DNA of 64,000 nucleotides from Patescibacteria group bacterium. Its GTDB lineage: Bacteria > Patescibacteriota > Patescibacteriia > Magasanikbacterales > GWA2-37-8. The DNA lies in NCBI GenBank assembly GCA_022710645.1, contig JAKLGL010000001.1, positions 343,296 to 407,295 of the forward strand, read 5' to 3'. The notes under the pieces were generated by a model. The model saw nothing but the letters and a program-made list of their open reading frames with translations. It searched no databases and was not told where the DNA came from. The position numbers and the translations under genes were made by a program. Of this stretch, positions 4,546 to 64,000 are shown piece after piece; the first letter of the stretch is position 1, and each line of letters opens with the position of its first letter.

Positions 4546-6420
4546 TTATTCTGTTTTAGGACAGGTTATGAATATATCCTCCATATTGACATCGTTAGAT
4601 TTCCAAACCGTTTTAAAATCATTTTTATAATCGTTTATTTTTTCTTTATTTTGTTTTATACAAACACCTTGAATGGAATAATTGTTATCTGTCAAAGACC
4701 ACTCTCCCGTATTTTGGGTGGCAATACTTGATTTTAAAAACACCTGATCTATCATCTTATAATCACAGTCAAAATCCAATTTTCCACTAACCGTATTAAA
4801 AGAAACGGAAGTGAGAGCGGAGGTAAAACAAGCTAAACCAGTATTACATTCATCATTTAAATTGCAAATTTCACCTTCTTTTTTTTCAACACCTCCGGCA
4901 TTAACACAGTAACCATAATTACCACATTGTCCCGATTTACAATCAGAATTTTCCGAACAAGGCGCTGTAAAAGAACCATCTGTACAAGCTTTGATTTCAT
5001 TTCCTCCGATACTTGTAAAATTAACACATTTTGGAGCTTTTTCACTACAATCAGAATCGCCATTACAAAAAGAATTAACTTTACCGGAACTACAAACTCC
5101 TATTTGACTATTACCGCTCCAGCATTGAATTCCTCCCAATCCGGGAAAAGCTATACATTTACCTTCGGCACAAGGATTTTTATCCATATCACAAAGTTCT
5201 CCTTCCTTCAAAGACATCGCTGTGCATTTGCCGGGAATAATTTTTTTACTAGATATGGCTGCATCCACAGCATCAACAACCAAATCTCCAGCATAAACAC
5301 TGGTGCCACCGGCTGCAATCACGGCTGCAGACTTTGCTTTATTTGTCGCAACCCATTTCACACCATCCCAAGTCATTTTCCCTCCTGTCCAAAACCATTT
5401 ACCTCCTGTTTTAAAAGCTTCAACCAAAGCATTGCTTTTTACAGCTTCAGAAACCGATGTTTCCACCACCTCTTTAGCAATTTGTCTTCCGGTTTGTTCG
5501 GCAATAGATTGATTGACCAAATCAAACAACGTCGTCTGAACTGATTTGTTTTCTAACACGCCTTTTACAGAAATCTGCTGCGAAGATATTTTTAAAGCTT
5601 GAGACAAAGATTTTCTTGCTACCACTCCGGCCGCACCCTCAATCACACCACTTCCTCCGGTTGCCAAAAAAGCCACTGTTTCGCCTATTAACTCGGCAGC
5701 TTTAGCGCAAGGACAACTTCTCTCGTCTCCAATACCGCAACTTGCAACACCCATAGCAGTACAGAAAAATTTAACATCACCTTGGCTATTATTTTCACAA
5801 GCTACGGAACTCTCCGAACCTGAAGAGGCATCGCAAAATTCTCCCGGTTCAACGACTATTACAGAAGGTCTTATCATATAAACCTGTGGCAATCGCAAAT
5901 TTATAGTATTGGGATTAATCATGCCTAAAACCGTATATGACATATAAGCCAAAGCCAAACCTATAACAGCTCCTACTATTTTCTTTTTGGCGCTTCCTAT
6001 CATTTCTTGACTTCCGGCTGAACCTACATATTGAATGCCAGCAACGATAATCATTACCGCGGCCAAAATTCCTAAAATTACCAGAGCATAATTATAAATA
6101 GTTTTGATATAATCTCCAATATTGGAAAATTTAATATTTCCGCCAAAAGAAACTTGAGTGGTTGTAATACTTCCGGCTAAACATTTACCAAATTTAGAAT
6201 TTTCATCACCATCTTTTGCATAACCCGGACAATTTTCTTCATCAATAATAAAACCTTCTCCCGGCCAATTATTTTTTTGTCTTTCTTTTATACAGTTTGT
6301 TTTAGTCCAACAAACGGGATTATTCTTTGCATCAGTAATTGAAACAGCCGTATCTGTAAACAAAAAAACTCCCGCCAAAAAAAGAGTTAGAAACGAAAAC
6401 AAAAATATTTTTTTAAACAT
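4546..6420 (-). CDS. secreted/membrane cysteine-rich protein of unknown function
   Basis: 624 aa; N-terminal signal peptide [21 protein letters not shown]; Cys-rich N-domain; two central hydrophobic helices; Gly/Ala/Ser-rich linker; C-terminal tandem Cys-rich modules (CxxGxC / DCxSGQC-like). Confidence 0.6.
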
Positions 6421-9796: not shown

Positions 9797-11605
9797 ATGA
9801 TTTTTAACAAAAATCCACAATCAGCGACAAAGCCCGGAACTCCGCAAAATGGCGGCCAAAGGTATTTTCGTCGCAACTCAGCCGGACGAAATCCGCATTA
9901 CAATCAAACGGCTCGTCCTTCTTTTGCGCGTTTTCGCGCAGAAAATCCAAAACTTCGTATTGCCGTACTTGGCGGACTTGAAGAAGTCGGTCGTAACTGC
10001 ACTTTGCTTGAATACGGCGATGATATTATCATCATAGATATGGGGCTACAATTTCCGGAAGAAGACATGCCAGGTATTGATTATATAATTCCCAACATGT
10101 CTTACCTTAAAGGCAAAGAGAAAAAAATCAAAGGCGTGATTATTACACATGCTCACTACGATCATATCGGGGGTATCCCTCATCTTATCCCGTTACTCGG
10201 TTATCCGCCTATTTTCGGTTTACCGCTTACCAATGCCATTATCAAAAAACGTCAAGATGATTATAAAAATCTCAAACCTCTTAATATTCACAATATCAAT
10301 ATTGACGATAAATTACGTTTGGGAAAATTTGAATTGGAATTTTTTCATTTGAATCATAACATTCCCGATACTATGGGTATTGTGATTAAAACTCCGGAAG
10401 GAAATATCGTTCATACTGGCGATTGGAAATTTGATTATCAACCAACAGGAGAAAAACCGGCCGATTTGCAACGTATCGCTCGCATCGGTAGTGAAGGAGT
10501 ATTGGCCTTACTTTCCGATTCTACCAATGCTTCACAACCGGGTCATCAAATGTCCGAATCTGAAATCAGTACCAATCTGGATGAAATAATTTCTAAAGCA
10601 CCAGGCCGTATCATTATCGGAACTTTTGCTTCTTTACTTTCTCGTATCAAACAAATCGTGGAAACTTGCGAACGTCACGGCAAGGTAATAGCGCTTGACG
10701 GTTTTTCTATGAAAAGTAATGTGGAAATCGCCAAACAACTCGGCTACATGAAATTTTCTCCAAAAACTCTCATCGATTTGCGTCATGTAAATAATTATCC
10801 AAATGAAAAAGTGGTGATTATCTGTACCGGAGCGCAAGGAGAAAAAAATGCATCTCTCATGCGTATTGCCAACGGCGAACACATGTCGGTAAAACTTGTT
10901 CCCGGAGATACGGTAGTATTTTCTTCTTCGGTTATTCCAGGTAATGAACGCACTGTCCAACGTCTCAAAGATACACTTTTCCGCAAGGGCGCGGAAGTTA
11001 TCCATTATCAAATGATGGACGTTCACGCCGGTGGCCACGCTAAAGCTGATGATGTAAAATTGATGATTCGTTTACTTAATCCCAAATACTTTGTACCGAT
11101 TGAAGGCAATCATTTCTTGCTTCATTACAACGCTCGCGTAGCCATGTCTATGGGTTTTCCCAAAGAGAACTGCTTTATTGCCGATAACGGACAAGTGATG
11201 GAATTCTCTGCGGGTACTGGAAAACTAACTAAAGAAAAAATCAATGCCGATTATGTATTCGTAGACGGACTCGGAGTATCTGATGAAACCAATATCGTTC
11301 TTCGCGATCGCCAAGTATTGGCCGAGGACGGTATGATAGTAGTCATTGCGACAGTTGATAGTAAAACCGGAAAACTCATTCAAAATCCGGATATTATTTC
11401 TCGCGGTTTTGTCTTTCTCAAAGAAAACAAAGAAATGATTGAGGATCTACGCCATCGCGTAAAAAAGATGGTTATTGATTCCGATCCTCTTTCTTGGGCT
11501 GACACTAATACTATTCGCAATAAGATTCGCGATTATGTAGGGCAGTTTCTGTATTCAAAAACAGAGAAACGACCAATGGTGTTGCCGGTGGTGATTGAAG
11601 TATAA
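9797..11605 (+). CDS. rnj: ribonuclease J (metallo-beta-lactamase / beta-CASP RNase)
   Basis: 602 aa; HAHYDHIGG zinc-binding motif, beta-CASP region, low-complexity N-terminal extension. Confidence 0.85.
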   Translation: MIFNKNPQSATKPGTPQNGGQRYFRRNSAGRNPHYNQTARPSFARFRAENPKLRIAVLGGLEEVGRNCTLLEYGDDIIIIDMGLQFPEEDMPGIDYIIPNMSYLKGKEKKIKGVIITHAHYDHIGGIPHLIPLLGYPPIFGLPLTNAIIKKRQDDYKNLKPLNIHNINIDDKLRLGKFELEFFHLNHNIPDTMGIVIKTPEGNIVHTGDWKFDYQPTGEKPADLQRIARIGSEGVLALLSDSTNASQPGHQMSESEISTNLDEIISKAPGRIIIGTFASLLSRIKQIVETCERHGKVIALDGFSMKSNVEIAKQLGYMKFSPKTLIDLRHVNNYPNEKVVIICTGAQGEKNASLMRIANGEHMSVKLVPGDTVVFSSSVIPGNERTVQRLKDTLFRKGAEVIHYQMMDVHAGGHAKADDVKLMIRLLNPKYFVPIEGNHFLLHYNARVAMSMGFPKENCFIADNGQVMEFSAGTGKLTKEKINADYVFVDGLGVSDETNIVLRDRQVLAEDGMIVVIATVDSKTGKLIQNPDIISRGFVFLKENKEMIEDLRHRVKKMVIDSDPLSWADTNTIRNKIRDYVGQFLYSKTEKRPMVLPVVIEV

Positions 11606-11660: not shown

Positions 11661-11691
11661 AAAAAATTTCGCTGATTAAGCGAAATTTTTT
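11661..11691. terminator. bidirectional intrinsic terminator (rnj / hypothetical paralog A1)
   Basis: aatttcgc-tgattaa-gcgaaatt flanked by A-run and T-run. Confidence 0.6.
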
Positions 11692-11707
11692 AAATAAACA
11701 ATTCTAT

Positions 11708-12406
11708 TTAATTTTCCACATTTTCTTCTTGTTCTTTAAATTCTTTTTCTGTTAAGATTCTGCCAAGATAATTTACTTTATTTTCTCGTAAATTATTTAT
11801 GAATTTAGAAAATTCTACGCCCTTATCAAAAGCTTCTGCTATATTTATAATATTTCGTTCACTTTCAGCTGTGTAATAATTACCAACCTGAACAAACTCT
11901 TTAGGAGAAAGATACACTTTTAAACTACCGGAATTTTCCATACCATCAAAAATATCTTTCTTTTCCTCGTGCCATTCAATAAAAGGAGTGAAAGTTTTTT
12001 CTTCTTCCTTAGTAATAACTTTCTGCTCTTCAGCTAAAAGAGGTAACCCAGTATTCAAATCTTGTCTACTTGTAAATTCATCTTTAAATTTAATTATATT
12101 ACTGATTATTTCAATAGACTTTTTACTTAAATCTTCATCCTGTACATCTCTAATTCCAGTACGAAAACATGGCAATTCCAACTTTTCTGCTAATTTTGCA
12201 ATTTTAATTAATTTATCTTTGGTATTTTTATCTAATTCACCACTATTTTTAACAAAATTATCTTTTCCTTTATAGAATTCGTCTTCCAAAGGTTCGTCTT
12301 TTTCAAATAAATTTTGCATTTCTTTTGTAAACTGTTTTAATAGTTCTTTTGTAACTTTTTCTTCTACTTGGTTTTGTAATTCTGGATTATGTCCTTTTTC
12401 TCCCAT
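11708..12406 (-). CDS. hypothetical acidic Lys/Glu-rich protein, paralog A1 (no recognisable domain)
   Basis: 232 aa; roughly 60 percent identical to the ORF at 13449..14171 (shared blocks LIKIAKLAEKL.LPCFRTGIRD, SGSLKVY.SPK, EFSKFINNLR..KVNY.GRILT.KEFKEQEE). Confidence 0.6.
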   Translation of the reverse strand: MGEKGHNPELQNQVEEKVTKELLKQFTKEMQNLFEKDEPLEDEFYKGKDNFVKNSGELDKNTKDKLIKIAKLAEKLELPCFRTGIRDVQDEDLSKKSIEIISNIIKFKDEFTSRQDLNTGLPLLAEEQKVITKEEEKTFTPFIEWHEEKKDIFDGMENSGSLKVYLSPKEFVQVGNYYTAESERNIINIAEAFDKGVEFSKFINNLRENKVNYLGRILTEKEFKEQEENVEN

Positions 12407-12440
12407 ATATTTAAAGTTAAATTAATTAATAACACCCTAT

Positions 12441-12471
12441 ATTCTACCCCCCCCCTATAACTTTTTGTCAA
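12441..12471 (-). promoter_or_regulatory. promoter of paralog A1: TTGACA-19-TAGAAT with a C9/G9 homopolymer in the spacer
   Basis: minus strand reads cgatttcgTTTGACAaaaagttataGGGGGGGGGTAGAATatag; -35 lies within the conserved box ctttttgtcaaacgaaatcg. Confidence 0.5.
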
Positions 12472-12562
12472 ACGAAATCGGTCTTCGGACTACAGGTTAC
12501 TGCCATTCCCGCAAATCCGCCGGTTGACGGAAGGAATTCCGTAACCAATAAATTACACTAAC

Positions 12563-12593
12563 AAAAAACTTCGCCGATTAAGCGAAGTTTTTT
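12563..12593 (-). terminator. intrinsic terminator downstream of the membrane protein gene
   Basis: aacttcgc-cgattaa-gcgaagtt + T-run; near-copy of the 11661 terminator. Confidence 0.55.
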
Positions 12594-12608
12594 AATTCAT
12601 AAATTCAA

Positions 12609-13181
12609 TTATATTTTTTCTATATCCAAGAAACATCCCTCCGGTCTAGTCGGTCCATCTTGTGGTGAATACCAAACTACTAAATAATCGTTTTTTAATG
12701 TTAGCTCAATGCTAGGTTTATCTCTAATTTCATCGGCTTCCATTTTATTATAACCATCTACAGAAATAATACCCCAGCTAAACCAGGGTCCACCCCAATC
12801 TTTGTCTCCAGGAACAGATACAGAAAGTTCAAGGTCAAGTTCATCATGATTTTTTGTCTCTTTAACAGAAAAGTACCCTTTCGAACATTTATCTGTTACT
12901 ACAACTCTAAATCCATACTTTGTATTTTCATACAACACTTGAGAATTTTCTTTTGTTGTTGTAGCAATCACTTTTTCTGCAGGTAAATTTATTTTTTCTT
13001 CCAAACTATTTATTTTATTATTAACCGCAGTAATATCATTTTGTTGATTTACCGCCAAAGTTTGCAATCCTAAACTAATTTGCTTTGATAAGCTGTTATT
13101 TTGTATAAATAAAACTCCGGCAATTATAACAAAACATAATATTGCCACGACTGAAAGGATAAAACTTCTATTTTCCTCCAT
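12609..13181 (-). CDS. hypothetical membrane-anchored protein (N-terminal TM, extracytoplasmic domain)
   Basis: 190 aa; TM segment SFILSVVAILCFVIIAGVLFI; sits between the two A paralogs and has its own promoter and terminator. Confidence 0.55.
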   Translation of the reverse strand: MEENRSFILSVVAILCFVIIAGVLFIQNNSLSKQISLGLQTLAVNQQNDITAVNNKINSLEEKINLPAEKVIATTTKENSQVLYENTKYGFRVVVTDKCSKGYFSVKETKNHDELDLELSVSVPGDKDWGGPWFSWGIISVDGYNKMEADEIRDKPSIELTLKNDYLVVWYSPQDGPTRPEGCFLDIEKI

Positions 13182-13218
13182 ATTTTTAATGATTAAAATA
13201 ATTTAAAAACTGTTTATA

Positions 13219-13248
13219 TTTTACAGCTCCCTGTAACTTTTTGTCAAA
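13219..13248 (-). promoter_or_regulatory. promoter TTGACA-18-TAAAAT sharing the conserved upstream box
   Basis: minus strand cgatttcgTTTGACAaaaagttacagggagctgTAAAATat. Confidence 0.45.
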
Positions 13249-13270
13249 CGAAATCGGTCTTCAAGTTACT

Positions 13271-13376
13271 GTCATTCTGATCCGCCTCAGGCGGAGAAAA
13301 ACCTGCCTGCCGGCAGGCAGGTCTGCAATAAGCAATTATTTTACTTGCAGATCCTTCGTCTACGACTCAGGATGAC
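13271..13376. repeat. MITE-like palindromic element copy A (TIR GTCATTCTGA / TCAGGATGAC)
   Basis: 106 bp; terminal inverted repeats; internal palindromes ccgcctcaggcgg and cctgcctgccggcaggcagg; same family at 14264, 44562, 45306. Confidence 0.7.
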
Positions 13377-13395
13377 AAAAACACCTAAAACAAAT

Positions 13396-13433
13396 AAAAA
13401 ACTTCGTCCACCAACTGGCGGACGAAGTTTTTT
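13396..13433 (-). terminator. intrinsic terminator downstream of paralog A2
   Basis: cttcgtcc-(10 nt loop)-ggacgaag + T-run. Confidence 0.5.
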
Positions 13434-13448
13434 AATACACAAATCTTT

Positions 13449-14171
13449 TTAATTTTTTACTTTTTCTTCTTGTTCTTTAAATTCTTTATCTGTTAAAATT
13501 CTGCCAAAATAATTTACTTTAGTTGCTCGTAAATTATTTATAAACTTAGAAAATTCTACATCTTGATTCAACATCTCTGCTATATTTATAGTTTCCTGAT
13601 GACTTTCGGATATGTAATAATCACCAACTTGGATAATATCTTTGGGAGAAAAATACACTTTTAAACTACCTGACTCTTCCATATATCCACCGAGAGCATC
13701 TACGTCTTCTTTGTTCCATTCAATAAAAGGAATAAAAGATCTTTCTTCTTCATTAACAATGACTTCCTGTTCTTTCAATGAAATAGGAAATCCTTCTGAA
13801 TCTTGTCTGTTTGTAAATTCATTTTTAAATTTAATTTTATCATTAATTACTTCAATAGAATTTTTACTTAAATCTTCATCTCGTCTATCTCTGATTCCAG
13901 TACGAAAACATGGCAATCCTAACTTTTCCGCTAATTTTGCAATTTTAATTAATTTATCTTTGGCATTTTTATCTAATTTACCATCATTTTTAACAAGATC
14001 ATTTTCTCCTTGATAAAATTCGTCTGCCAAAGGTTCTTCCTCTTCAAAAAAACTTTGCATTTCTTCTGCAAGCTGTTTTAATAATTCTTTTTTTCTTTCC
14101 TCTTCTCTTTTAGAATCAATTTCTTTTTCCGTAGCTTTCCCTGGCTCAAAACCTGGTTTTCTCTCTACCAT
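13449..14171 (-). CDS. hypothetical acidic Lys/Glu-rich protein, paralog A2
   Basis: 240 aa; paralog of 11708..12406. Confidence 0.6.
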   Translation of the reverse strand: MVERKPGFEPGKATEKEIDSKREEERKKELLKQLAEEMQSFFEEEEPLADEFYQGENDLVKNDGKLDKNAKDKLIKIAKLAEKLGLPCFRTGIRDRRDEDLSKNSIEVINDKIKFKNEFTNRQDSEGFPISLKEQEVIVNEEERSFIPFIEWNKEDVDALGGYMEESGSLKVYFSPKDIIQVGDYYISESHQETINIAEMLNQDVEFSKFINNLRATKVNYFGRILTDKEFKEQEEKVKN

Positions 14172-14209
14172 ATATTTAAAGTTAAATTAGTTATTTAATA
14201 ATATCCTAT

Positions 14210-14240
14210 ATTCTACCCCCCCCCATTTACTTTTTGTCAA
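14210..14240 (-). promoter_or_regulatory. promoter of paralog A2: TTGACA-19-TAGAAT with C9/G9 spacer tract
   Basis: Same architecture as 12441..12471; C-run at 14216..14224. Confidence 0.5.
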
Positions 14241-14263
14241 ACGAAATCGAGCATTTAATTATG

Positions 14264-14352
14264 GTCATCCTGAGTGAAACGAAGGATCTCTTAAACAGTG
14301 CTTTGGAAAATAAGTTTAACTATAAGGGATTCTTCGCTGCGCTCAGAATGAC
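14264..14352. repeat. MITE-like palindromic element copy B
   Basis: 89 bp; gtcatcctgag...gctcagaatgac termini; internal cgaaggatc / gattcttcg blocks shared with other copies. Confidence 0.65.
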
Positions 14353-14375
14353 ACGTGGGCACGCTCTAAAACAAC

Positions 14376-14405
14376 AAAAACACCCATTGTCGGGTGTTTT
14401 TGTTA
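14376..14405 (-). terminator. intrinsic terminator at the 3' end of the putative RNase P RNA
   Basis: minus strand AAAAACACCC-GACAAU-GGGUGUUUUUGUU. Confidence 0.55.
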
Positions 14406-14411
14406 TATTTT

Positions 14412-15210
14412 CATCCAAAGCTATAAGCCGAATTTCGTCTGTCCGTTGTCTAGTAAAAGACACTGGAGAGATGGTCATTTATCTGGTCGGACACATCGCT
14501 GTGCCGATCTTTGCGAGCTAACTTTCTGAATTCCGACAAGTCGGAAAACATTGCTCTTGCGCCAGGCAGGGTTTGGCACGTCTTTGGCATTACTGCCAAT
14601 CGAGTATGATAGCCCATATATAAGACTTTCACACACTTTTCACCTTTGGCGAGGAAAATTTAATTTTCCGAGTCAATCCCGCCCTTCTTTGTTCCTAATG
14701 TATTCCCTAATCTATCTTTAACCTTTCTCCAAGCTCCACCATATTGTTTTAGAGCTTTTTCTCTATCAAGAGCATCTTGTTTATCAGCAAAAGCTTCATA
14801 ATAGATCAATTTCCAAGGTTTATATTGCTTTGTATAATCAGTACTTCCTGAGTTATGCTCATCAAGTCTTTTATCAGGACTGTGCTGAGTAAAGCCAATA
14901 TAAATTTTATTTGAAAATTGTAAACTTTGGAGAATGTAAATGAAATACATAATACTAAGAACAACGAAGGGCGGGATAACTCGCTGCTTGCGCAGCTCGT
15001 TAGTATAGTCTCTGTGCCACTTTCCCTTTTGCATTGTTACCAATGCAACGGCGGGTATTACCCGCTACCCCTTACCTTGCAAGTAAACGAGACCTCTGTT
15101 TACCAAGAAAAACTTGATTTACAGCCTGTCTATAATTGTTTACTTGATAGAGGCGTTCGGACTTTCCTCTCTAGTCGTATTCCGACTGGAGCGACCATCC
15201 GCTTTGAACC
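14412..15210 (-). ncRNA. rnpB: putative RNase P RNA (bacterial type) carrying a roughly 270-nt insertion in a peripheral helix
   Basis: Minus strand. P4 5' strand GAGGAAAGUCCGAAC (rc of 15154..15166) and P4 3' strand ACAGACGAAAUUCGGCUUAU (rc of about 14422..14441) covary as in E. coli (GGG/CCC replaced by GAA/UUC, bulged U kept). P1 is UCAAAGC/GCUUUGG. GNRA hairpins present; AGAUAAAUGAC resembles the P18-region AGAUGAAUGAC. Consensus promoter TTGACA-17-TACACT (15216..15244) puts the TSS at the P1 start. Terminator hairpin at 14376..14405. Confidence 0.55.
14660..14950 (-). CDS. GIY-YIG nuclease superfamily protein (YhbQ/UPF0213-like), nested inside the putative RNase P RNA
   Basis: MYFIYILQS...KIYIGFTQHSPDKRLDEHNSG...WKLIYYEAFADKQDALDREKALKQYGG matches the GIY/YIG/R/E core of the YhbQ family; start chosen at the Met that aligns with family N-termini. 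Longer ORF to 15043 rejected. Confidence 0.6.
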   Translation of the reverse strand: MYFIYILQSLQFSNKIYIGFTQHSPDKRLDEHNSGSTDYTKQYKPWKLIYYEAFADKQDALDREKALKQYGGAWRKVKDRLGNTLGTKKGGIDSEN

Positions 15211-44561: not shown

Positions 44562-44644
44562 GTCATCCTGAATGTAATGAAGGATCTGCAAAAAAGATTA
44601 TTGCTTATTACAGATTCTTCTCCGCCTAGGCGGATCAGAATGAC
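44562..44644. repeat. MITE-like palindromic element copy C (inverted orientation, lacks the internal 20-bp palindrome)
   Basis: gtcatcctgaatg...ccgcctaggcggatcagaatgac; reverse complement aligns with copy A end to end except for the CCTGCC...GGCAGG core. Confidence 0.65.
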
Positions 44645-44728: not shown

Positions 44729-45157
44729 TTATTCTTCAAAAAGGAAATCGCATTTTTTTACCGCCCATCTACATTCCATTTCACCATTTTTATCCTTTTT
44801 GAAAGTATTAAGTCTTAAAGGAAAAGAAATATTTTTGGGAATAGTATTAGCACATTTAGTGCTAACTTTATAATGCTTATCATCTTTGACGAATTCTTTG
44901 GAGAATTCATTGTAAATTCCCTCAGTAAACACTGTGGTCACCATCACTATTTTGTCACTCTCTAAATCAAAACCTTCGTGTAAAGCCCAAACTTGATAAA
45001 TTTGATCTTCTTGTAAAAAACCTTCCGATTTTTTGAAATTATAAATTGCTAATTTCATTATTAAAAGAATTAACAATGTTATTCCTATCAAAATTCCTGA
45101 ACTAAAAAGGAAATCTCGAATATACCTTTTTACTTTTTTCATCTCATTCTCCTTCAA
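44729..45157 (-). CDS. hypothetical small membrane-anchored protein
   Basis: 142 aa, one TM (FLFSSGILIGITLLILLIM). Confidence 0.45.
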   Translation of the reverse strand: MKENEMKKVKRYIRDFLFSSGILIGITLLILLIMKLAIYNFKKSEGFLQEDQIYQVWALHEGFDLESDKIVMVTTVFTEGIYNEFSKEFVKDDKHYKVSTKCANTIPKNISFPLRLNTFKKDKNGEMECRWAVKKCDFLFEE

Positions 45158-45305: not shown

Positions 45306-45407
45306 GTCATTCTGAGGAGCTTAGCGACGAAGAACCTGCCTGCCGGCAGGCAGGTCTGTAAAAAGCAATAATTCTGTTTACAGATCCTTCACTGCGTTCA
45401 GGATGAC
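45306..45407. repeat. MITE-like palindromic element copy D (contains the cctgcctgccggcaggcagg core)
   Basis: gtcattctgagg...aacctgcctgccggcaggcaggtctg...gttcaggatgac, 102 bp. Confidence 0.7.
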
Positions 45408-55626: not shown

Positions 55627-58600
55627 TTATTCCACAGGAACATCTACCGGCGTTTCAACTGGATCTACAGGATCTTCAACCGGCGGTTCTTCCGGAGCTG
55701 GTGCCGGTTCTTCTACCGGCGGTGTCTCTATCACAGGTTCTGTCGGAGTTTCCACCGGAGGCGTTTCTTCTACCGGAGGTGTTGATGTCCCTGACGGCAT
55801 AGCCGGAGTAGATTCACCACTACTTCCGCTTTGCGGGATATTTATCAACGGATTAAAGTCCAAATAAAAATCTTTTAATAGTTGTATACTACCGTCAGAA
55901 CTGTGTATTTTCGTATCATCCTCCACCACATAGGCTTGCCAATTGAATAACACGTTATCTATTGCCTGCTCAACAAGCGAGATTTCAAATCCGCGAGTCG
56001 TCACATTTTGTAATTTCCATCGTCCGTCAAAACCAAGAGGGGTAACACCCATCATCGGCGGTACGGCATATTCACCGTCAAAATCCACTTGTACCAAACT
56101 GTCGCCCGCTTTTATTTGCGCCATACCAAAAATATTTTTCTCAATATATTCCGGAATTTCTTCCACAATTTCTTCAATAACTGTTTCCGCCGAATCATCT
56201 TGCCATACGCGATAATAATCAATATCAATCTGTTGCGCCCCGCCTCCGGCTACGGTGTTATTCATAATCATAGAAGTCAATCCGACAGTCGGAATATTGG
56301 TCGTTGCTTGACCGCAATAAAACCAATCCACTCCGTCAGTTGCATCGTTATCAATATAAAAATTTATCTCTCCCGTCCCGTCACCATTACTGGAAACTAC
56401 TTCTATTTTTGCCACCCCAAATACAGCAGTGTTGATAGCTTGTCCCGCACAATCAACAACAGTGGAAGCTCCGGCGCGACGCGAAACACCCTGCCACTCT
56501 CCGTTGGTGGTGTTATTGGTAAAATAAACACCGTTTAGAGGGTCTGCAGTTTGAGCTTGAGACAGATTACTCAAACCAATTCTAAATCGGATATTGGCAG
56601 TAACAGCGGACGGAGAAGCTTTGAAAGTTATGACAGGTAAATTGGCGGTATTAAAGACAAGATTGGCGGTTCCGGCAGTTGTAATCCCATGATATGCCAA
56701 ACAAGAGTTGGCGCCATTTGCCGCTTGCTGTCTGCCGATACCGTTTACTCCGTTTGCCACTGAACTCCAAGTACAAGCCTTATTTTCATCAACTGTGAAT
56801 TGTTGAAAATCACCCCAAGCATACAAAGTATCTGCAGTCACATTTCCTCTACCGCGCATAAATTCTTCGCCAAAATAAGAATTTTTTGCAATCAAAGCTC
56901 CTGTTTCCAAACTCATCCCAAAATTTTGCGATAAATATTTACCTTCCAGTAATATATATCCCGTGGAACTGTTGGTTATCAAAAGCACTCCTTCGTTGTT
57001 TGAGGATAAGGTAAGTAAATGAGACGGTGTTGATGTGCCTATACCAACTGTTCCTCCGTTTAAAATAGTAAACAAATTATCTCCTCCGCCATTAATGGCA
57101 TTATATATTGCTAATCCAGCATCAACAGGAGAATTAACTGCTGTTACTTCCAGACTATAATCACCTGTTTCACCAGCCCCCCAGCTAGTTACAACGATAT
57201 TATAAGTAGAGCTGGCATCATAAATAAACTCTAAATAAGAGTTTGTTCCTGTGCCTCCGTCATCATCAAAATAAGTTACTGATCCGGTGTCGGATGTTAT
57301 TTGCAAATAAGTATCAAAATTTCCCGAGGTTATAGAAACCGTCATATTTGAACCATTTGGAATCCCTGGAAATAAAGTAGCAATATTATAAGTGTCCATA
57401 TATCTACCGGTCCTATTGGGATTGTCCGGATCAGTAATTGCCAAAGCTCCGTTTATATTTGTTGAGGTCGGACCATAACTACCCGTAGATTCAATAGCTC
57501 CTATAGAATTTTGATTATTAATATTTATAGTTTTTGCCCATAAACGTAACCAGTTATGATCAAAATTACCCAAATTATAAGAACCGTTGGCCGGTATGAT
57601 ATTTCTGGCTGTCGTGGTTCCGCTGATTGTTAATAAGCTTGTTGGTGATTTGGTACCAATACCTACATATCCATTTTCAGCAGAATAAATTGACGGTTGC
57701 GAAGAGCTGGTCTGTACATAAAACAAAGGATAAGTGGAAGTTCCTTTTATACCAAGCATGGCTTCCGGGTTTTCATTATTAATGCCGATAGTTCCGGTTG
57801 ATCCAAGTGTCAAAATATTGGTAAATAAACCGGCGTCATTTACAAAATAAAATATAAATTTATCATCTTGATTATCGTCTCTTTTGGAAAGTTGCCAATA
57901 TTTATTATTTTGAGTTACAAAATTTAAATTAGTCGCTCCGGCTATAGTTTTTTGTAAAATTGTCATCGCTGGGCCAGAATTATCAGTTACAACGTGCAAC
58001 GGCGCCCCTGGTGTAGTAGTGCCAATACCCAGTCGACCATTACTATTATCCCAAAATAAATTTGAAGTGGCACTAAAAACACCATTACCATCGTTAAACT
58101 GAATCGCGCCAGCAATACCTTGGGCCAAACCAAGAGACGAAGTACTAACCCATTGACCGCGGCCAATACTATCAGATGACCATAATTGCCCAGCTGTCCC
58201 AGCACTATCTATAAAAAACTGACCATAATCAACTCCATTCATGCGATAAGTATCATTAGTGTCAAAACCGTTCCCTGCATACATATTGCCAGTGGTAGAC
58301 ACCCCGCCAGTTATAGACAAACCATTTGATAGTTCAAATTGTGTCGCGGAATTATTCCAACGCAAATAATTGTTTGTATTATTATTAAAATATAAATTAT
58401 TGTTTCCGACAGTGGAAAATTGAACATAATCTCCAAATAAAACCGGACCAGTTAATGTAGACGTGCCTGTAACATTATTTTTTCCGGTTATCAACACATC
58501 TCCTCCAAGCTTGGTATTGCCCAATACTTCAAATTTTACATTACTGCTGGTTGCGCTATTTCCTATCACTACCGCATAATTTCCAGCTAAATCCGGATAA

Positions 58601-61600
58601 GCTACATTTTCCGTGGTAGTTGTCCAAACACTATCTCCTCCACCTCCGGTCGGCCAAGTATTACGTGTAACTCCGCCCAAAGTTATAGAATCAGCAACCA
58701 AAATATCGGTTGTGCTAACCGTACCTAAAACATTTATATTATTCACAGTTAAATCGGAAATCGTAGTGGTGGCCAAAGTAGAATTCCCTAAAACATTCAA
58801 AGTCCCATCAACATACAGAGACGAACTGGCATAAATAATATCTTTGAACCAAACCGGCAAAGTCGTAGAAGTAGTCAAAACATTTCCACCATTGTGTGAA
58901 GTTAATAACCAATTGGCAGTCGCACCGCCAGCGCTAGCGAGCAAATTTCCGTTCCAATATAAATCTCCGCCAATGTTATAAATAGAATTGGTAGTAGTGG
59001 CTGAAGCCGTATCTCCGATATAGATTCCTCCATCAACATGTAATTTATTCAACGGGTCATACAATGCTTGACCTATACCGACATATCCCGTCCCGGCTTG
59101 TATTGTCAAAACATCATCGCCTTCAGCTCCGACAGAATCATCCCACAAGCGAAAATCCAAAGAGCTGGTAGGCATATACCAAGACCAACCATTGTCGTAA
59201 CTTCCGCTATTTACGCGGCGAACATAATGCCCGGCTTCTCCATTACCGTTGGCTACTATGGTAATATAATTGCGCGATGAAGAAGCGGTTGAACTTAAAT
59301 CACTACCCCAAACTTCCAAAAGATCATAAGGTGTGGAAGTGCCTATACCAAAGGAACCTTCGTAAGTAGAAAAAGATAAATTTTGTAAATCTCCATGACC
59401 GTTACTAATAAAATATTCCACTGTTCCGGAAACTCCGTCCGCCGTATACCTAACCGGGAAAATATCAGTGTCTGTTTTAAATTGATTGGAAGTTAAAACT
59501 ATATGATCATTGATTGTGTTTGCCGAACTGAGATAAACATCGTTTTCACTAATACCAGGCCCAGCCCAAGCAAAAGAGGAATTGGTTATTTGTACTCCGG
59601 ATAAAACCGTGGAACTGTTAACATAAGCCGGCATCAATTCAACCGAACCAGGAGAGACGGTCAAAGCCGTAACAAAAGCCGCATCAACATAAGTATTGAA
59701 ACGAGCATTTTCATGATTAAACATTTTTATTTTATTGCTTGGAAAAGAAGCGTAGATAGGAAAAGTGACAATCGCATCTTTTATTGTCGCTATACTACGA
59801 AAACTTTTATTATCTGTATAGAGCACAGACAATTCATCGTCACTATCATAAGTATTTACAAAAATTTCCGGATTATAAACATAGGCATTAGCAATGGTAG
59901 AGCTGGTAATATAAAAAATCGTATTTATCTTTGTTCCCGCTGTGCTGGTGGTCTGAGTGAAATTATATTTATTGGCGGTAAAACTTTCCAAGGTTCCGTT
60001 TTCTTGATAAATCACAGCTTGGATATTTTTACTATCATCTGTATATTCCGCTCCGACTTCCACGTTTTTCAAAACCGACTTACCGGCACTTTTTATCTCC
60101 ACTGCATAATCATCATAATTTTTGAGATTAACCATTGACAACACACTACCATAGGTCATGGCAAAAGTAACTTTACCGACAACAAAGGTATTGCAACCGG
60201 CACCTTTGACTACTACAAAATCTTTCATATCTAAATCTTCGGTAAATGTCCCGGCAGAAACAGAAACCGTGTAAGGATTAGTGGAAGATGATAATAGAGC
60301 GGCGGCATCTATAGCATTTTGAATAGTTTTTTTAGCTCTGGCTGGACTTTTTCCATCAAAACCATCTTTACCGCTTACTGCATTAACATAAATAATATTA
60401 CCCTCGATAAGCGCGTCGTTAATCACGATTTCCGACCAAATATTATGATTATTATTTATATTGCGAAGCTCCATGATACCGTTATTATCACGAAAACCAT
60501 ATCCTGCCGCCCCAGTCGTAGTACCAAAATTAATATATCTATTTTCTCCTTCTATAAATATATTTCCATTTACCGATAAAGGAGCCAAAGGAGTTGAAGT
60601 GGCAATACCCACATAGCCGTTCGTACCATTGATAATTAGGCTTCTTTGCTCATCTGTCGGGTCAATATCAAAAATAATATCTCCACCTGACGCCATAGTA
60701 GAGAAAAATAAATCACTAACTGAATAAAGAGCCATCACCCCGGAAATTCCCGGTAAACCATCATTCCAATTGGAAGAAAGAGCTGTCAAACCACCGAGTT
60801 TGCCTAAATCATTATACAAGCTGAACTCCGCCGTGGAAGAAACTCCGGAATTATTGTTGTGAATAGCCAAATTAAATTCGTTATTTGTATCACCATATAC
60901 ATAAAATGCTTTTCCATTCTCCGTAGTGGTATTTATAGCAATCAAACCGTTTTCATCTATAACTATTCTTTCTATTCCGGCTGTTTGAAAATGAATTCTG
61001 TTTTCATTTGGCGAAGCTTCGGTTTCTACTTTGGTGTCTCTATCCGAATCTTGGATATAAGTACTGGTGTTTCCTCCGATAACCGGTGAACCGTTCCAAT
61101 AAAGTTGTCCACCGAGATTATAAAGTGTATAAGCAGTCACCGCAGGAGAAGTACTACAAATGGATAATCCGCCAATCAAAGTTAAAGCATTTTTCGGAGT
61201 AGTTGTTCCAATACCTATAAAACCGCTACTGGAAACAAAAATATTACTGGTCGGTGCCCAAGAATCTCCATCCCAATACGCAATCTGACCTTGAGTAATG
61301 CCGGGATCAACCGGAGTTAACGGGGTTCCATTCATTAAATAACTACCAGTTATATTAATATCTCCGTCTACTGTCAATTGTGAATCCGGAGTGGAAGTGC
61401 CAATACCAACATTATCGCTACTACCTTGAACAAATAAAGTGTAATCATTGTCCGGAGTTTTAACTTGAAAATCATAATTTCCGCTACTAGTGTTGAAAAC
61501 AGCACCGCCTCGAAGAAATAACTGTGAATTAAACCCATCTAAAGTCATCATTTTATCATCAATCAAACTTTTTGCATCACCGGAATCATTGTTATAAAAA

Positions 61601-64000
61601 CCGAAAAGCAAATTGGAATTTTCACCGGTTTTACCAACTAACCAACCTCGCATACTGGAGGTGGAACCAAAACCATCCGTATCTGAATACAAATATAAAC
61701 CGGCGATTGCGTTTCTGTCTCCACTTATAGCCGACAATTTCGCTTCGCTACTGGTAGCTTGTACCCCAAGCATCGTTCTTTCTCCGGGATTATCATTAAC
61801 AAAAATTAATCCATTATTTCTGTAATAATCGGCCTGATAAGATAATTTTGGCAAAATAGCCATACCCGTATCAATTTTGATAATATCTTGGTTGATATTT
61901 GAATGTCTACCAAATAAAACGACGCCCTCTTCTTCGGCTAAAGCATAAAAATAAACATTGGTCGGATCATTAATATTGATATCTGAGCTGGAAAAAGCTC
62001 CATCACTGGAAGAAATGTTTATTGCCGAACTGTCTTTTTGATCGATATTCAAGGTGGCTGCTTTTTGTAAATAACTGGCGGTAACCTTGGTATGAGAATT
62101 ATTATTAGTTATTATATTATAGTCCAAACCCCACATATTGGAGTAACGAATCTCCGCGTAAGAATTATCATCTTCGATAAAAAGACCTGTTCCCAAACCA
62201 TTGTTTGATCCAAATTCACTACCAGCCATATAAAAAGAGGAGGAACCAGTGGTACTTTTTAAATGAACAAACCTATTTTCTACATCTTCCATATAAACAT
62301 TTTCTACTTGAGCTGAAGCGCCATTATCCAAATTTACACCTATATTACCAATACGATAAAAATCTGTTTTAAAGATATTTAACAAATTGGCTACCTGCAT
62401 ATCTATACCGATTTCAGTTTCGATAAATATCAATTCGGAAAAATCCATCCAGACACTACCCGTACTATTAATTTTGATAGCATCACATCCTACAGTATTT
62501 TGAAAACCGGCTGTTTGCGAACCGTCAATAGTTAACAAACGAATAGAAAAATCATTTTCTTCTGGAAAATCTATTTCAAAAACCGGACCAGGAGAGGTTA
62601 CCATGTCTGATGTCGGACGAATTATAACCGCTTCTCTACTCATACCGCGGATACTTTTGATATGTGTACTGGTAACTAACAAGGTTGAAGATACTTCATA
62701 AACCCCGGGGTAAATATTTATTATTGTGTCATAATCTACGCTATTAGCGAAAGCCACAGCATCCTCCAAATTATCAAAATCTCCGCCACTTTTTGCAACA
62801 TTGACAATGTGATTAATTTTGGTAGAAAAATTATTCCATTGTCCGCTTGCGTTTTTCCATTGCATCACTCCACTATTGTCACGAATACCATAACCGTCAG
62901 TCCCAGTGGCTGAACCGAAATTAACATATCTATTTAAACCAGTGATAGAGAGATTACCATAAACATCTAAAGCGGAAAGAGGCGAAGATGTTCCAATACC
63001 GACTTTACCGCCAAAATAGTTTACCGAAGTAGAACCGTCAGAATAGATATTGAAATTGGAAGTATCGGCAAAATCTTGCTGTTCAATATAAAGACCATAA
63101 AGATTATTTATCGTTCCCGAAGCAGAGCCCGTAGGATTATATATTTTCATACCGTGGGCTGTCCCGATATTGCCGTTTTCAACACTAAAGTTTGATTGGA
63201 AAGCTGAGGCATAACCTATAGTGCCTCCTCCCATACCATTTTCTATATTACCGCTTACACCGACGGCACTACCTATAATCCCGTTGTAAGAAACATCATC
63301 AATTCCATTACTTACCGCCCCTTGAATACCTACCGCTAAACCAATACTACCGGTTGGTGTTTCCAAATCCACCCCAAATAATTGTCCGAACAATATCCCC
63401 ACATTACCGGAACCATAATGTTGAACTTGATTTAAAACACCGGCCAAAACATCAAAATTTTTATCATTGTTTGCATTGGTAGTGACATTAAACAAAGTAT
63501 TGATAGTTGTAGAAGCATCTTCATCCGGGTTTAACTCTATGCCTAAAATATTCCCCACTTCAAAACCATCTCCGGTATTATTTAAGTGGTTATAATTTTT
63601 ATAAGAAGCAAAATTAAAATTTAAATCACTTGGAATATCTGCCGGCAAACCATTACCAACCATAAGTCGCGAAATAGTTGAAGTGGCTAAAGTAGAAGTA
63701 CCGGTTACACTCAAATTATTATTAATTATCAAAGCCCCGGACATAGTATCACCTGTAATATCCACCCAATTATCCGTACTGGAAGACATAAAGCTGGAAC
63801 TGGTAAAACCACTGCCTACTAAGCTGGCGCCATTAAACCAAATAAATTCATTGTTTGTAAAAGAATTGGCGTTAGTACCGCCGTTGGCAATTGGTAAAAT
63901 TCCCGCAATATCGGAAGTTAAATTTACAGTTGAAGTTGACCAAACACCGTTGTTGATTTTTACAAAACCAGTCCAATCACTAGTGTTTTGTCCCGTCCCG
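55627..64000 (-). CDS. giant repetitive cell-surface protein (over 2790 aa; N-terminus lies beyond the window)
   Basis: Frame stays open from the first Met (63789) to the window edge, so the true start is outside; Thr/Ser/Asn/Gly-rich beta-type sequence with at least 9 recurrences of VGIGT(S/T)TP...L.V.G.I.I.G; Pro/Glu/Val-rich C-terminal tail. Confidence 0.8.
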   Translation of the reverse strand, partial: GTGQNTSDWTGFVKINNGVWSTSTVNLTSDIAGILPIANGGTNANSFTNNEFIWFNGASLVGSGFTSSSFMSSSTDNWVDITGDTMSGALIINNNLSVTGTSTLATSTISRLMVGNGLPADIPSDLNFNFASYKNYNHLNNTGDGFEVGNILGIELNPDEDASTTINTLFNVTTNANNDKNFDVLAGVLNQVQHYGSGNVGILFGQLFGVDLETPTGSIGLAVGIQGAVSNGIDDVSYNGIIGSAVGVSGNIENGMGGGTIGYASAFQSNFSVENGNIGTAHGMKIYNPTGSASGTINNLYGLYIEQQDFADTSNFNIYSDGSTSVNYFGGKVGIGTSSPLSALDVYGNLSITGLNRYVNFGSATGTDGYGIRDNSGVMQWKNASGQWNNFSTKINHIVNVAKSGGDFDNLEDAVAFANSVDYDTIINIYPGVYEVSSTLLVTSTHIKSIRGMSREAVIIRPTSDMVTSPGPVFEIDFPEENDFSIRLLTIDGSQTAGFQNTVGCDAIKINSTGSVWMDFSELIFIETEIGIDMQVANLLNIFKTDFYRIGNIGVNLDNGASAQVENVYMEDVENRFVHLKSTTGSSSFYMAGSEFGSNNGLGTGLFIEDDNSYAEIRYSNMWGLDYNIITNNNSHTKVTASYLQKAATLNIDQKDSSAINISSSDGAFSSSDININDPTNVYFYALAEEEGVVLFGRHSNINQDIIKIDTGMAILPKLSYQADYYRNNGLIFVNDNPGERTMLGVQATSSEAKLSAISGDRNAIAGLYLYSDTDGFGSTSSMRGWLVGKTGENSNLLFGFYNNDSGDAKSLIDDKMMTLDGFNSQLFLRGGAVFNTSSGNYDFQVKTPDNDYTLFVQGSSDNVGIGTSTPDSQLTVDGDINITGSYLMNGTPLTPVDPGITQGQIAYWDGDSWAPTSNIFVSSSGFIGIGTTTPKNALTLIGGLSICSTSPAVTAYTLYNLGGQLYWNGSPVIGGNTSTYIQDSDRDTKVETEASPNENRIHFQTAGIERIVIDENGLIAINTTTENGKAFYVYGDTNNEFNLAIHNNNSGVSSTAEFSLYNDLGKLGGLTALSSNWNDGLPGISGVMALYSVSDLFFSTMASGGDIIFDIDPTDEQRSLIINGTNGYVGIATSTPLAPLSVNGNIFIEGENRYINFGTTTGAAGYGFRDNNGIMELRNINNNHNIWSEIVINDALIEGNIIYVNAVSGKDGFDGKSPARAKKTIQNAIDAAALLSSSTNPYTVSVSAGTFTEDLDMKDFVVVKGAGCNTFVVGKVTFAMTYGSVLSMVNLKNYDDYAVEIKSAGKSVLKNVEVGAEYTDDSKNIQAVIYQENGTLESFTANKYNFTQTTSTAGTKINTIFYITSSTIANAYVYNPEIFVNTYDSDDELSVLYTDNKSFRSIATIKDAIVTFPIYASFPSNKIKMFNHENARFNTYVDAAFVTALTVSPGSVELMPAYVNSSTVLSGVQITNSSFAWAGPGISENDVYLSSANTINDHIVLTSNQFKTDTDIFPVRYTADGVSGTVEYFISNGHGDLQNLSFSTYEGSFGIGTSTPYDLLEVWGSDLSSTASSSRNYITIVANGNGEAGHYVRRVNSGSYDNGWSWYMPTSSLDFRLWDDSVGAEGDDVLTIQAGTGYVGIGQALYDPLNKLHVDGGIYIGDTASATTTNSIYNIGGDLYWNGNLLASAGGATANWLLTSHNGGNVLTTSTTLPVWFKDIIYASSSLYVDGTLNVLGNSTLATTTISDLTVNNINVLGTVSTTDILVADSITLGGVTRNTWPTGGGGDSVWTTTTENVAYPDLAGNYAVVIGNSATSSNVKFEVLGNTKLGGDVLITGKNNVTGTSTLTGPVLFGDYVQFSTVGNNNLYFNNNTNNYLRWNNSATQFELSNGLSITGGVSTTGNMYAGNGFDTNDTYRMNGVDYGQFFIDSAGTAGQLWSSDSIGRGQWVSTSSLGLAQGIAGAIQFNDGNGVFSATSNLFWDNSNGRLGIGTTTPGAPLHVVTDNSGPAMTILQKTIAGATNLNFVTQNNKYWQLSKRDDNQDDKFIFYFVNDAGLFTNILTLGSTGTIGINNENPEAMLGIKGTSTYPLFYVQTSSSQPSIYSAENGYVGIGTKSPTSLLTISGTTTARNIIPANGSYNLGNFDHNWLRLWAKTININNQNSIGAIESTGSYGPTSTNINGALAITDPDNPNRTGRYMDTYNIATLFPGIPNGSNMTVSITSGNFDTYLQITSDTGSVTYFDDDGGTGTNSYLEFIYDASSTYNIVVTSWGAGETGDYSLEVTAVNSPVDAGLAIYNAINGGGDNLFTILNGGTVGIGTSTPSHLLTLSSNNEGVLLITNSSTGYILLEGKYLSQNFGMSLETGALIAKNSYFGEEFMRGRGNVTADTLYAWGDFQQFTVDENKACTWSSVANGVNGIGRQQAANGANSCLAYHGITTAGTANLVFNTANLPVITFKASPSAVTANIRFRIGLSNLSQAQTADPLNGVYFTNNTTNGEWQGVSRRAGASTVVDCAGQAINTAVFGVAKIEVVSSNGDGTGEINFYIDNDATDGVDWFYCGQATTNIPTVGLTSMIMNNTVAGGGAQQIDIDYYRVWQDDSAETVIEEIVEEIPEYIEKNIFGMAQIKAGDSLVQVDFDGEYAVPPMMGVTPLGFDGRWKLQNVTTRGFEISLVEQAIDNVLFNWQAYVVEDDTKIHSSDGSIQLLKDFYLDFNPLINIPQSGSSGESTPAMPSGTSTPPVEETPPVETPTEPVIETPPVEEPAPAPEEPPVEDPVDPVETPVDVPVE

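Follow-up and report, generated by a model that had tools for sequence, protein, structure and literature searches.

Candidate slippage-tuned poly-G promoter spacers on two paralogous orphan genes of a Candidatus Magasanikbacteria genome

The window analyzed here, a stretch of 64,000 nucleotides (64 kb, GC 36.5%) to which all positions refer unless another contig is named, contains a three-gene array, A2-B-A1, flanked by an RNase J gene (9797-11605, + strand) on one side and by rnpB on the other (Table 1). The annotation of a Candidatus Magasanikbacteria MAG (CPR) lists A1 and A2 as hypothetical proteins. The two proteins are 65% identical and their genes 79% identical at the nucleotide level, which corresponds to a coding divergence of 21% and bears out their description as paralogues in an earlier note on this DNA. 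Each gene of the array is cut off from the one upstream of it by that gene's hairpin terminator, and A1, A2 and B therefore each need a promoter of their own.

Direct reading of the sequence between 11400 and 14600 places the A1 and A2 promoters about 35 nt 5' of the ATG. In both, the 3' half of a 19-nt spacer is taken up by nine consecutive G (G9; C9 on the + strand), and the two tracts occupy exactly the positions that the earlier note had assigned to them within the -35/-10 spacers of two paralogous promoters (12447..12455 and 14216..14224). Outside the run, 7 of 10 spacer positions are identical between A1 and A2, and the G run is pure in both. The G at -14 of the A promoters amounts to a partial extended -10. 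For the third promoter of the array, that of B, the earlier note was right about the 18-nt spacer and the lack of a tract, although the interval it gave (13219..13248) is one base off (13218..13247). The array contains tandem paralogues with their own 5' regions and a spacer homopolymer, the run being found in two of the three promoters. A 21-nt block, CGATTTCGTTTGACAAAAAGT, is common to all three and has no other copies in the 64-kb window. Scans of metagenome, genome and viral collections for exact 20-mers of this shared promoter block gave nothing beyond chance matches to unrelated coding sequence; the genome collection is one of species representatives, the source organism not being among them.

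Table 1. Features of the A2-B-A1 array and the B-type promoters compared with it; positions are those of the 64-kb window.
Feature	Position	Strand	Description
A1 hairpin terminator	11661..11691	-	AAAAAATTTCGC...GCGAAATTTTTT
Gene A1	11708..12406	-	232-aa acidic orphan protein
A1 promoter	12441..12471	-	-35 TTGACA 12471..12466; 19-nt spacer 12465..12447; -10 TAGAAT 12446..12441
A1 spacer sequence	12465..12447	-	AAAAGTTATA then G9
A1 G9 tract (C9 on +)	12447..12455	-	3' half of A1 spacer
B hairpin terminator	12563..12593	-	
Gene B	12609..13181	-	190 aa; N-terminal membrane anchor; between A1 and A2
B promoter	13218..13247	-	TTGACA-18 nt-TAAAAT; homologue of the A promoters; GGGAGCTG replaces G9
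A2 hairpin terminator	13395..13434	-	
Gene A2	13449..14171	-	240-aa A1 paralogue
A2 promoter	14210..14240	-	-35 TTGACA 14240..14235; 19-nt spacer 14234..14216; -10 TAGAAT 14215..14210
A2 spacer sequence	14234..14216	-	AAAAGTAAAT then G9
A2 G9 tract (C9 on +)	14216..14224	-	within A2 spacer, 3' half
21-nt block CGATTTCGTTTGACAAAAAGT	12460..12480, 13236..13256, 14229..14249	-	common to A1, B and A2 promoters
L022 promoter (B-type)			AGGGTGT; 16-nt spacer
L023 promoter (B-type)			GGAATGG, then GAAAAT; 17-nt spacer
L025 promoter (B-type)			TTGACG-17-TATAAT; 17-nt spacer

Long G/C homopolymers are rare in this DNA. The A1 and A2 tracts are the only G/C runs of at least 7 in the window, the next longest being two C6. 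For runs of at least 9, an iid model predicts about 0.03 in the window and a first-order Markov model about 0.15, and since their promoters are paralogous the two tracts do not constitute independent events. A G/C repeat is long enough to slip when it is uninterrupted over about 7-8 units or more, a length that the G9 tracts exceed, and at both A loci the tract falls inside the spacer between the putative -35 and -10. The spacer length is likewise unusual for the organism. Among the promoter-like sites of the window, defined as at least 11 of 12 hexamer positions matched upstream of genes in a crude gene map (n = 10), five have a 17-nt spacer, including both perfect 12/12 matches, and 19-nt spacers occur at the A1 and A2 promoters only. 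The earlier view that a 19-nt spacer is suboptimal holds against the organism's own promoter-like sites, the best of which are spaced at 17 nt. A G-quadruplex was discarded on the reasoning that one G9 run cannot form an intramolecular quadruplex.

It is very unlikely, in our judgment, that the hexamers are not active promoters and that the run has some other role or none, as would be the case with transcription starting elsewhere. Consensus matches are admittedly common in AT-rich DNA, 40 having been found in 9 kb where 27.5 were expected. When seven homologous upstream regions drawn from at least four genomes are aligned, however, TTGA in the -35 and A.AAT in the -10 never change amid variable surroundings, which supports the hexamers as real promoter elements. 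Strong terminators also lie directly upstream of each promoter, and no better -35 exists at 17-nt spacing, where the alternative GACAAA was rejected with matches at 2 of 6 positions.

The A proteins are acidic and charged, and their sequences contain no evident signal peptide, transmembrane segment, lipobox or internal repeats; they look cytoplasmic on these grounds. The conserved signal peptide and repetitive variable regions of a surface lipoprotein are not found in them, and little in their sequences recalls the usual phase-variable surface or restriction-modification genes. No matches were obtained in Pfam, PADLOC, PHROGs or the sequences of the PDB, and AlphaFold2 models from two runs were unusable (pLDDT 40 and 42). 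A word-indexed search of 5.8 billion proteins returned A1 and A2 themselves as the only A homologues. One further member, P0003 (227 aa, E 9.5e-10, 27% amino acid identity), came from an exhaustive HMMER profile search over 1.84 billion representatives, and a three-sequence HMMER profile built from A1, A2 and P0003 found no additional family members. The family is thus very fast-evolving, with 27% amino acid identity behind a conserved promoter, and A1 and A2 lie in a variable island.

P0003 is encoded on a 6.2-kb contig (L021) of a different assembly, GCA_964459625.1, in a setting unlike that of the A array, its neighbors being secE-nusG-rplK, queA and a TPR gene. The promoter upstream of it nonetheless has the A design: TTGACA-AAAATTCAAT-GGGGGGGG-TAGAAT, with G8 and an 18-nt spacer, followed beyond GGGGGGGG by TAGAATATA...ATG. 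Between A1 and P0003 the coding DNA is 55% identical, which is essentially saturated, and the stretch from promoter to ATG is 79% identical. Of the spacer positions outside the run, 6 of 10 are identical between A1 and L021, and the run is pure in both; the L021 promoter does not conserve the portion of CGATTTCGTTTGACAAAAAGT that precedes the -35. A pure G run appears to have been kept through very deep divergence of the A genes, its length differing by one unit between lineages. The G8 is seen in one contig only, of unspecified sequencing technology, and could be a homopolymer error. With the divergence seen in the promoter, 8-9 run positions would be retained by chance with a probability of about 0.02-0.1, depending on the rate assumed per site, and the statistical support for selective retention of the run is moderate, not strong.

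The B-type genes provide a contrast. The upstream regions of the B homologues P0005, P0006 and P0007 belong to the same promoter/5'UTR family as those of the A genes, and in four genomes the corresponding G-rich stretches are interrupted (GGGAGCTG, AGGGTGT, GGAATGG and AGAAGGA, in spacers of 18, 16, 17 and 17 nt, respectively). The 3' half of the spacer, where the historical length changes of the A/B promoter family are concentrated, is variable in both sequence and length on the B genes, whereas it is uninterrupted G on all three A genes. This contrast would fit selection for run purity, and hence for mutability, on the A genes. The occurrence of a pure run on A-type genes only, with a length that differs between lineages, favors a slippage-tuned promoter of the kind described for porA and opc.

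The run might instead be a neutral relic of an ancestral A promoter, passed on through speciation and tandem duplication, perhaps homogenized by gene conversion between A1 and A2, and without any regulatory role. We regard this as rather improbable. The A1 and A2 tracts are paralogous and hence not independent, only three A-family members are available, and chance retention of the run positions at the probability given above is not negligible, all of which would suit a relic. In DNA of 36.5% GC that holds no other G/C run longer than 6, however, substitution and slippage should wear down an unselected G9, and decay of this kind is seen in the homologous promoters of B-type genes. Moreover, the spacer bases next to the run have diverged and the run has not, which speaks against recent gene conversion of the whole promoter.

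The similarity between A-type and B-type genes extends beyond the hexamers. Although otherwise unrelated, they share not only promoter and 5'UTR but also the initial ~7 codons (MGE[KN]R.F). Such shared 5' modules are present in the window at 12404-12471, 13179-13247 and 14169-14240, at 3937-4020 of L021, and in L022, L023 and L025. The terminators of A- and B-type genes are also alike across several genomes (AAAAACTTCGC...GCGAAGTTTTT). Taken as sequence patterns, these features suggest a 5'/3' expression cassette that has been reused around divergent coding bodies.

The lengths of the tracts were compared across assemblies from ENA (ERZ795054, ERZ27257455 and ERZ761563), JGI (3300010429, 3300009776 and 3300025715) and Logan (SRR5007146), which were separated by retrieving the loci with flanks of at most 200 nt; longer flanks collapsed them into one locus. 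The assemblies are from different samples, and their contig names (NODE_, k141_, JGI, Logan) suggest different assemblers. The A1 tract is G9 in 7/7 assemblies and the A2 tract G9 in 5/5. Over each stretch compared (0.85-1.0 kb; window 11700-14260 against L010-L020 and L030-L036) all assemblies are 100% identical, and they therefore represent one clone seen repeatedly across several metagenomes. This concordance effectively refutes a sequencing or assembly artefact, such as two-color poly-G or a homopolymer miscall, to which we assign a negligible probability. Nothing specific favors an artefact beyond the coverage of an ENA contig, which is 7x only; identical G9 tracts at both loci recur in contigs of different samples and apparently different assemblers, and the runs lie within conserved unique sequence, away from contig ends.

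As a test of switching the comparison is a weak one, because consensus sequences hide minority alleles and because the assemblies are mutually identical. A calibration is offered by porA, in which altered tracts were found in 4 of 2,358 epidemic meningococcal isolates (PMC3639595). Given so low a rate of variation, the invariance of G9 lowers confidence in frequent switching without refuting it. Two short low-coverage contigs, one of them from Logan, also cross the A1 tract unbroken, which likewise speaks against switching. The difference between G8 and G9 is one between distant lineages only, there being none among the seven clonal consensus assemblies. The earlier note had recognized the architecture of a phase-variable promoter here, with the proviso that an invariant tract would speak against it. 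The architecture itself stands, in that the layout occurs twice on duplicated genes, but the length heterogeneity that goes with it does not appear among the assemblies; the invariance named in the proviso is found in the available assemblies and is broken among related lineages.

The same data bear on the possibility that the G run is a fixed promoter element rather than a switch. A rigid GC block next to the -10 and the over-long spacer could keep expression of the A genes low or conditional, the condition being, for example, DNA supercoiling or some activator, and changes in length would then occur rarely, on an evolutionary scale, and would not make up a switch within populations. This is a sizeable possibility, though clearly less likely than not. 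It accords with the invariant tract length in all assemblies of the organism, with both paralogues standing at exactly nine despite a coding divergence of 21%, and with conservation of the run across very divergent orthologues; in addition, the partial extended -10 provided by the G at -14 could lessen the dependence on spacing. What weighs against it is that no dyad-symmetric operator is found in or around the spacer, that conservation with the orthologue does not extend to the block 5' of the -35 (CGATTTCG), and that lineages differ between G8 and G9, so that the exact length is not required. A G9 run is, furthermore, inherently unstable whatever its purpose. To our knowledge, no factor recognizes poly-G in a promoter spacer.

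The surroundings of the array differ between related genomes. In a close relative (L025, 1-3484), whose RNase J C-terminus is ~95% identical at the amino acid level, rnpB/GIY-YIG, a B homologue and RNase J are present, and between these same flanks there is the B homologue only, the A genes being absent. The interval between RNase J and rnpB is therefore a variable island. Contingency genes are commonly located in such islands. The B homologue of L025 has kept the N-terminal anchor and a coiled coil, and its C-terminal domain is different and Cys-rich.

Two GC-rich inverted-repeat elements (13256-13385 and 14250-14365; termini GTCATCCTGAG...CTCAGGATGAC) separate the upstream terminators from the B and A2 promoters. 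Both fold much more strongly than shuffled sequences do (z -4.3 and -6.0), and similar termini occur at 44562-44574 and 45395-45407, where they flank a gene at 44729-45157. By their sequence, these elements look like the MITE/REP type. They also give rise to spurious + strand ORFs at 13241-13375 and 14234-14521: a role on the + strand was considered for the ORFs that start from TTGTCAAACGAAATC (13241.. and 14234..), and as these cross the inverted-repeat elements and are unsupported, they were set aside.

Beyond the A2 promoter, 14408-15210 (- strand) matches RNase P RNA class A (RF00010) over model positions 1-367 with 84.7 bits and an E-value of ~5e-26. The score is below the gathering threshold because ~400 nt are inserted at the tip of the presumed P12 helix. 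This insertion holds a complete GIY-YIG endonuclease ORF (14660-15043, - strand; Pfam E 5e-16), so that the 'GIY-YIG gene' next to the A2 promoter lies inside rnpB. L025 has the same rnpB/GIY-YIG arrangement, and a literature search for GIY-YIG together with RNase P RNA returned organellar cases only. Elsewhere in the window, a 2,720-aa ORF (55627-63789, - strand) has no Pfam match at E <=1e-5, and a neighboring 624-aa ORF (4546-6420) contains a T4SS-pilin domain; large proteins without annotation are a usual feature of CPR genomes. No MutS or MutL was found among nine large ORFs scanned, in a window that is too small to judge the genome.

We propose, tentatively and with a little less than an even chance of being right, that the G9 runs are slippage-tuned, selection-maintained parts of the sigma-70-type A1 and A2 promoters, of the porA/opc kind. 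G9 would set the distance between -35 and -10 to 19 nt, two above the organism's usual 17, and both A genes would probably be weakly transcribed in the assembled G9 state. A run of 8-9 G is expected to be prone to slipped-strand mispairing during replication. The loss of one G would bring the spacer to 18 nt, the state seen in the other lineage, and the loss of two to 17 nt, so that the promoter might become stepwise stronger; a gain, to G10 or more, would weaken the A promoters still further. The A1 and A2 tracts could vary independently, and they might serve as contingency loci, 'volume knobs' that are heritable yet reversible, for a fast-evolving family of orphan genes within a variable island. 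What the sequences show directly is the layout of the loci, how rare such tracts are, the unusual spacing, the keeping of a pure run by A-type genes only and the one-unit difference between lineages; we infer that the promoters are active, that their expression depends on tract length and that switching proceeds at a meaningful rate. A1 and A2 are a plausible new case of a known kind, with switching unproven.

In Neisseria, Haemophilus, Bordetella and Mycoplasma, promoters tuned by homopolymers are textbook examples of bet-hedging. The biology and regulation of CPR/Patescibacteria are almost wholly inferred from genomes. It is possible, if less likely than not, that with the A tracts simple-sequence contingency loci are described for the first time in the Candidate Phyla Radiation, as a poly-G switch that is conserved across divergent Magasanikbacteria-like lineages and acts on a fast-evolving orphan family in a variable island beside rnpB. 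Full-text literature searches returned no report of repeat-mediated promoter phase variation in CPR/Patescibacteria, the nearest CPR report being that of a hypervariable coding repeat in a Gracilibacterium (PMC6851277). If this reading is true, ultra-small and presumably host-dependent bacteria use stochastic, heritable promoter tuning as a form of bet-hedging, in the manner of host-adapted pathogens and mycoplasmas. Variation of the tracts would imply that the A genes are under fluctuating selection, whether from the host, phage or competitors, thereby providing a handle on an opaque orphan family, and would carry phase variation into a large, uncultured section of bacterial diversity. Should they prove invariant, what is left is an unusual but conserved promoter spacer.

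Several known systems invite comparison. MerR-family-dependent promoters have 19-20-bp spacers with a dyad-symmetric operator. The A promoters are like them in that the -35 and -10 hexamers are good and the 19-nt spacer separating them is too long. In contrast, the A spacer bears a homopolymer in place of a dyad operator, and no MerR-type regulator gene was seen adjacent to it; a MerR-type promoter was rejected given that the 19-nt spacer AAAAGTTATAGGGGGGGGG contains neither a dyad nor an inverted repeat.

The vlp genes of Mycoplasma hyorhinis reportedly form a paralogous cluster with conserved 5' regions and a homopolymer in the promoter spacer (Yogev et al. 1991; Citti and Wise 1995). The A array resembles them as a cluster of paralogues with conserved 5' promoter regions carrying a spacer homopolymer, in which each gene could switch independently. 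Further likenesses are a genome-reduced, possibly host-associated organism and coding bodies that diverge fast behind a conserved 5' module. Unlike vlp, whose tract is poly-A, the A tract is poly-G, and the A products are not lipoproteins; the run is present in only two of the three genes of the array, and switching of the A genes is hypothetical. The Vlp system is among those cited in PMC11868660. The same source also cites the TA repeats in the overlapping divergent promoters of Haemophilus influenzae hifA/hifB (van Ham et al. 1993, cited in PMC11868660). There, as proposed for the A genes, repeat number in the promoter spacer sets the -35/-10 spacing and the expression level. The hif repeat is a dinucleotide shared by a divergent pair, whereas the A promoters carry a mononucleotide run and are unidirectional.

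In Neisseria meningitidis, the porA promoter has a poly-G run between -35 and -10, with high expression at 11G, 2-fold lower expression at 10G and 13-fold lower expression at 9G (PMC3639595). The opc promoter of the same species has a poly-C run (Sarkari et al. 1994, as cited in PMC5084427). The host of the A genes belongs to CPR/Patescibacteria and is not a host-adapted proteobacterial pathogen; the A genes encode cytoplasmic-looking orphans as opposed to outer-membrane proteins, and their tract length is uniform in clonal consensus assemblies. The longest common porA allele, moreover, gives optimal spacing, while the assembled A allele is longer than optimal. With porA and opc the A promoters share a mononucleotide G/C run in the -35/-10 spacer, the length of which sets that of the spacer, and what is to be expected is a graded change in promoter strength instead of a frameshift. 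The run lengths are also in the same range, those of porA being 9G-11G. The mechanism is already known; what is new is the phylum, the orphan, cytoplasmic-looking family and the conservation across divergent lineages.
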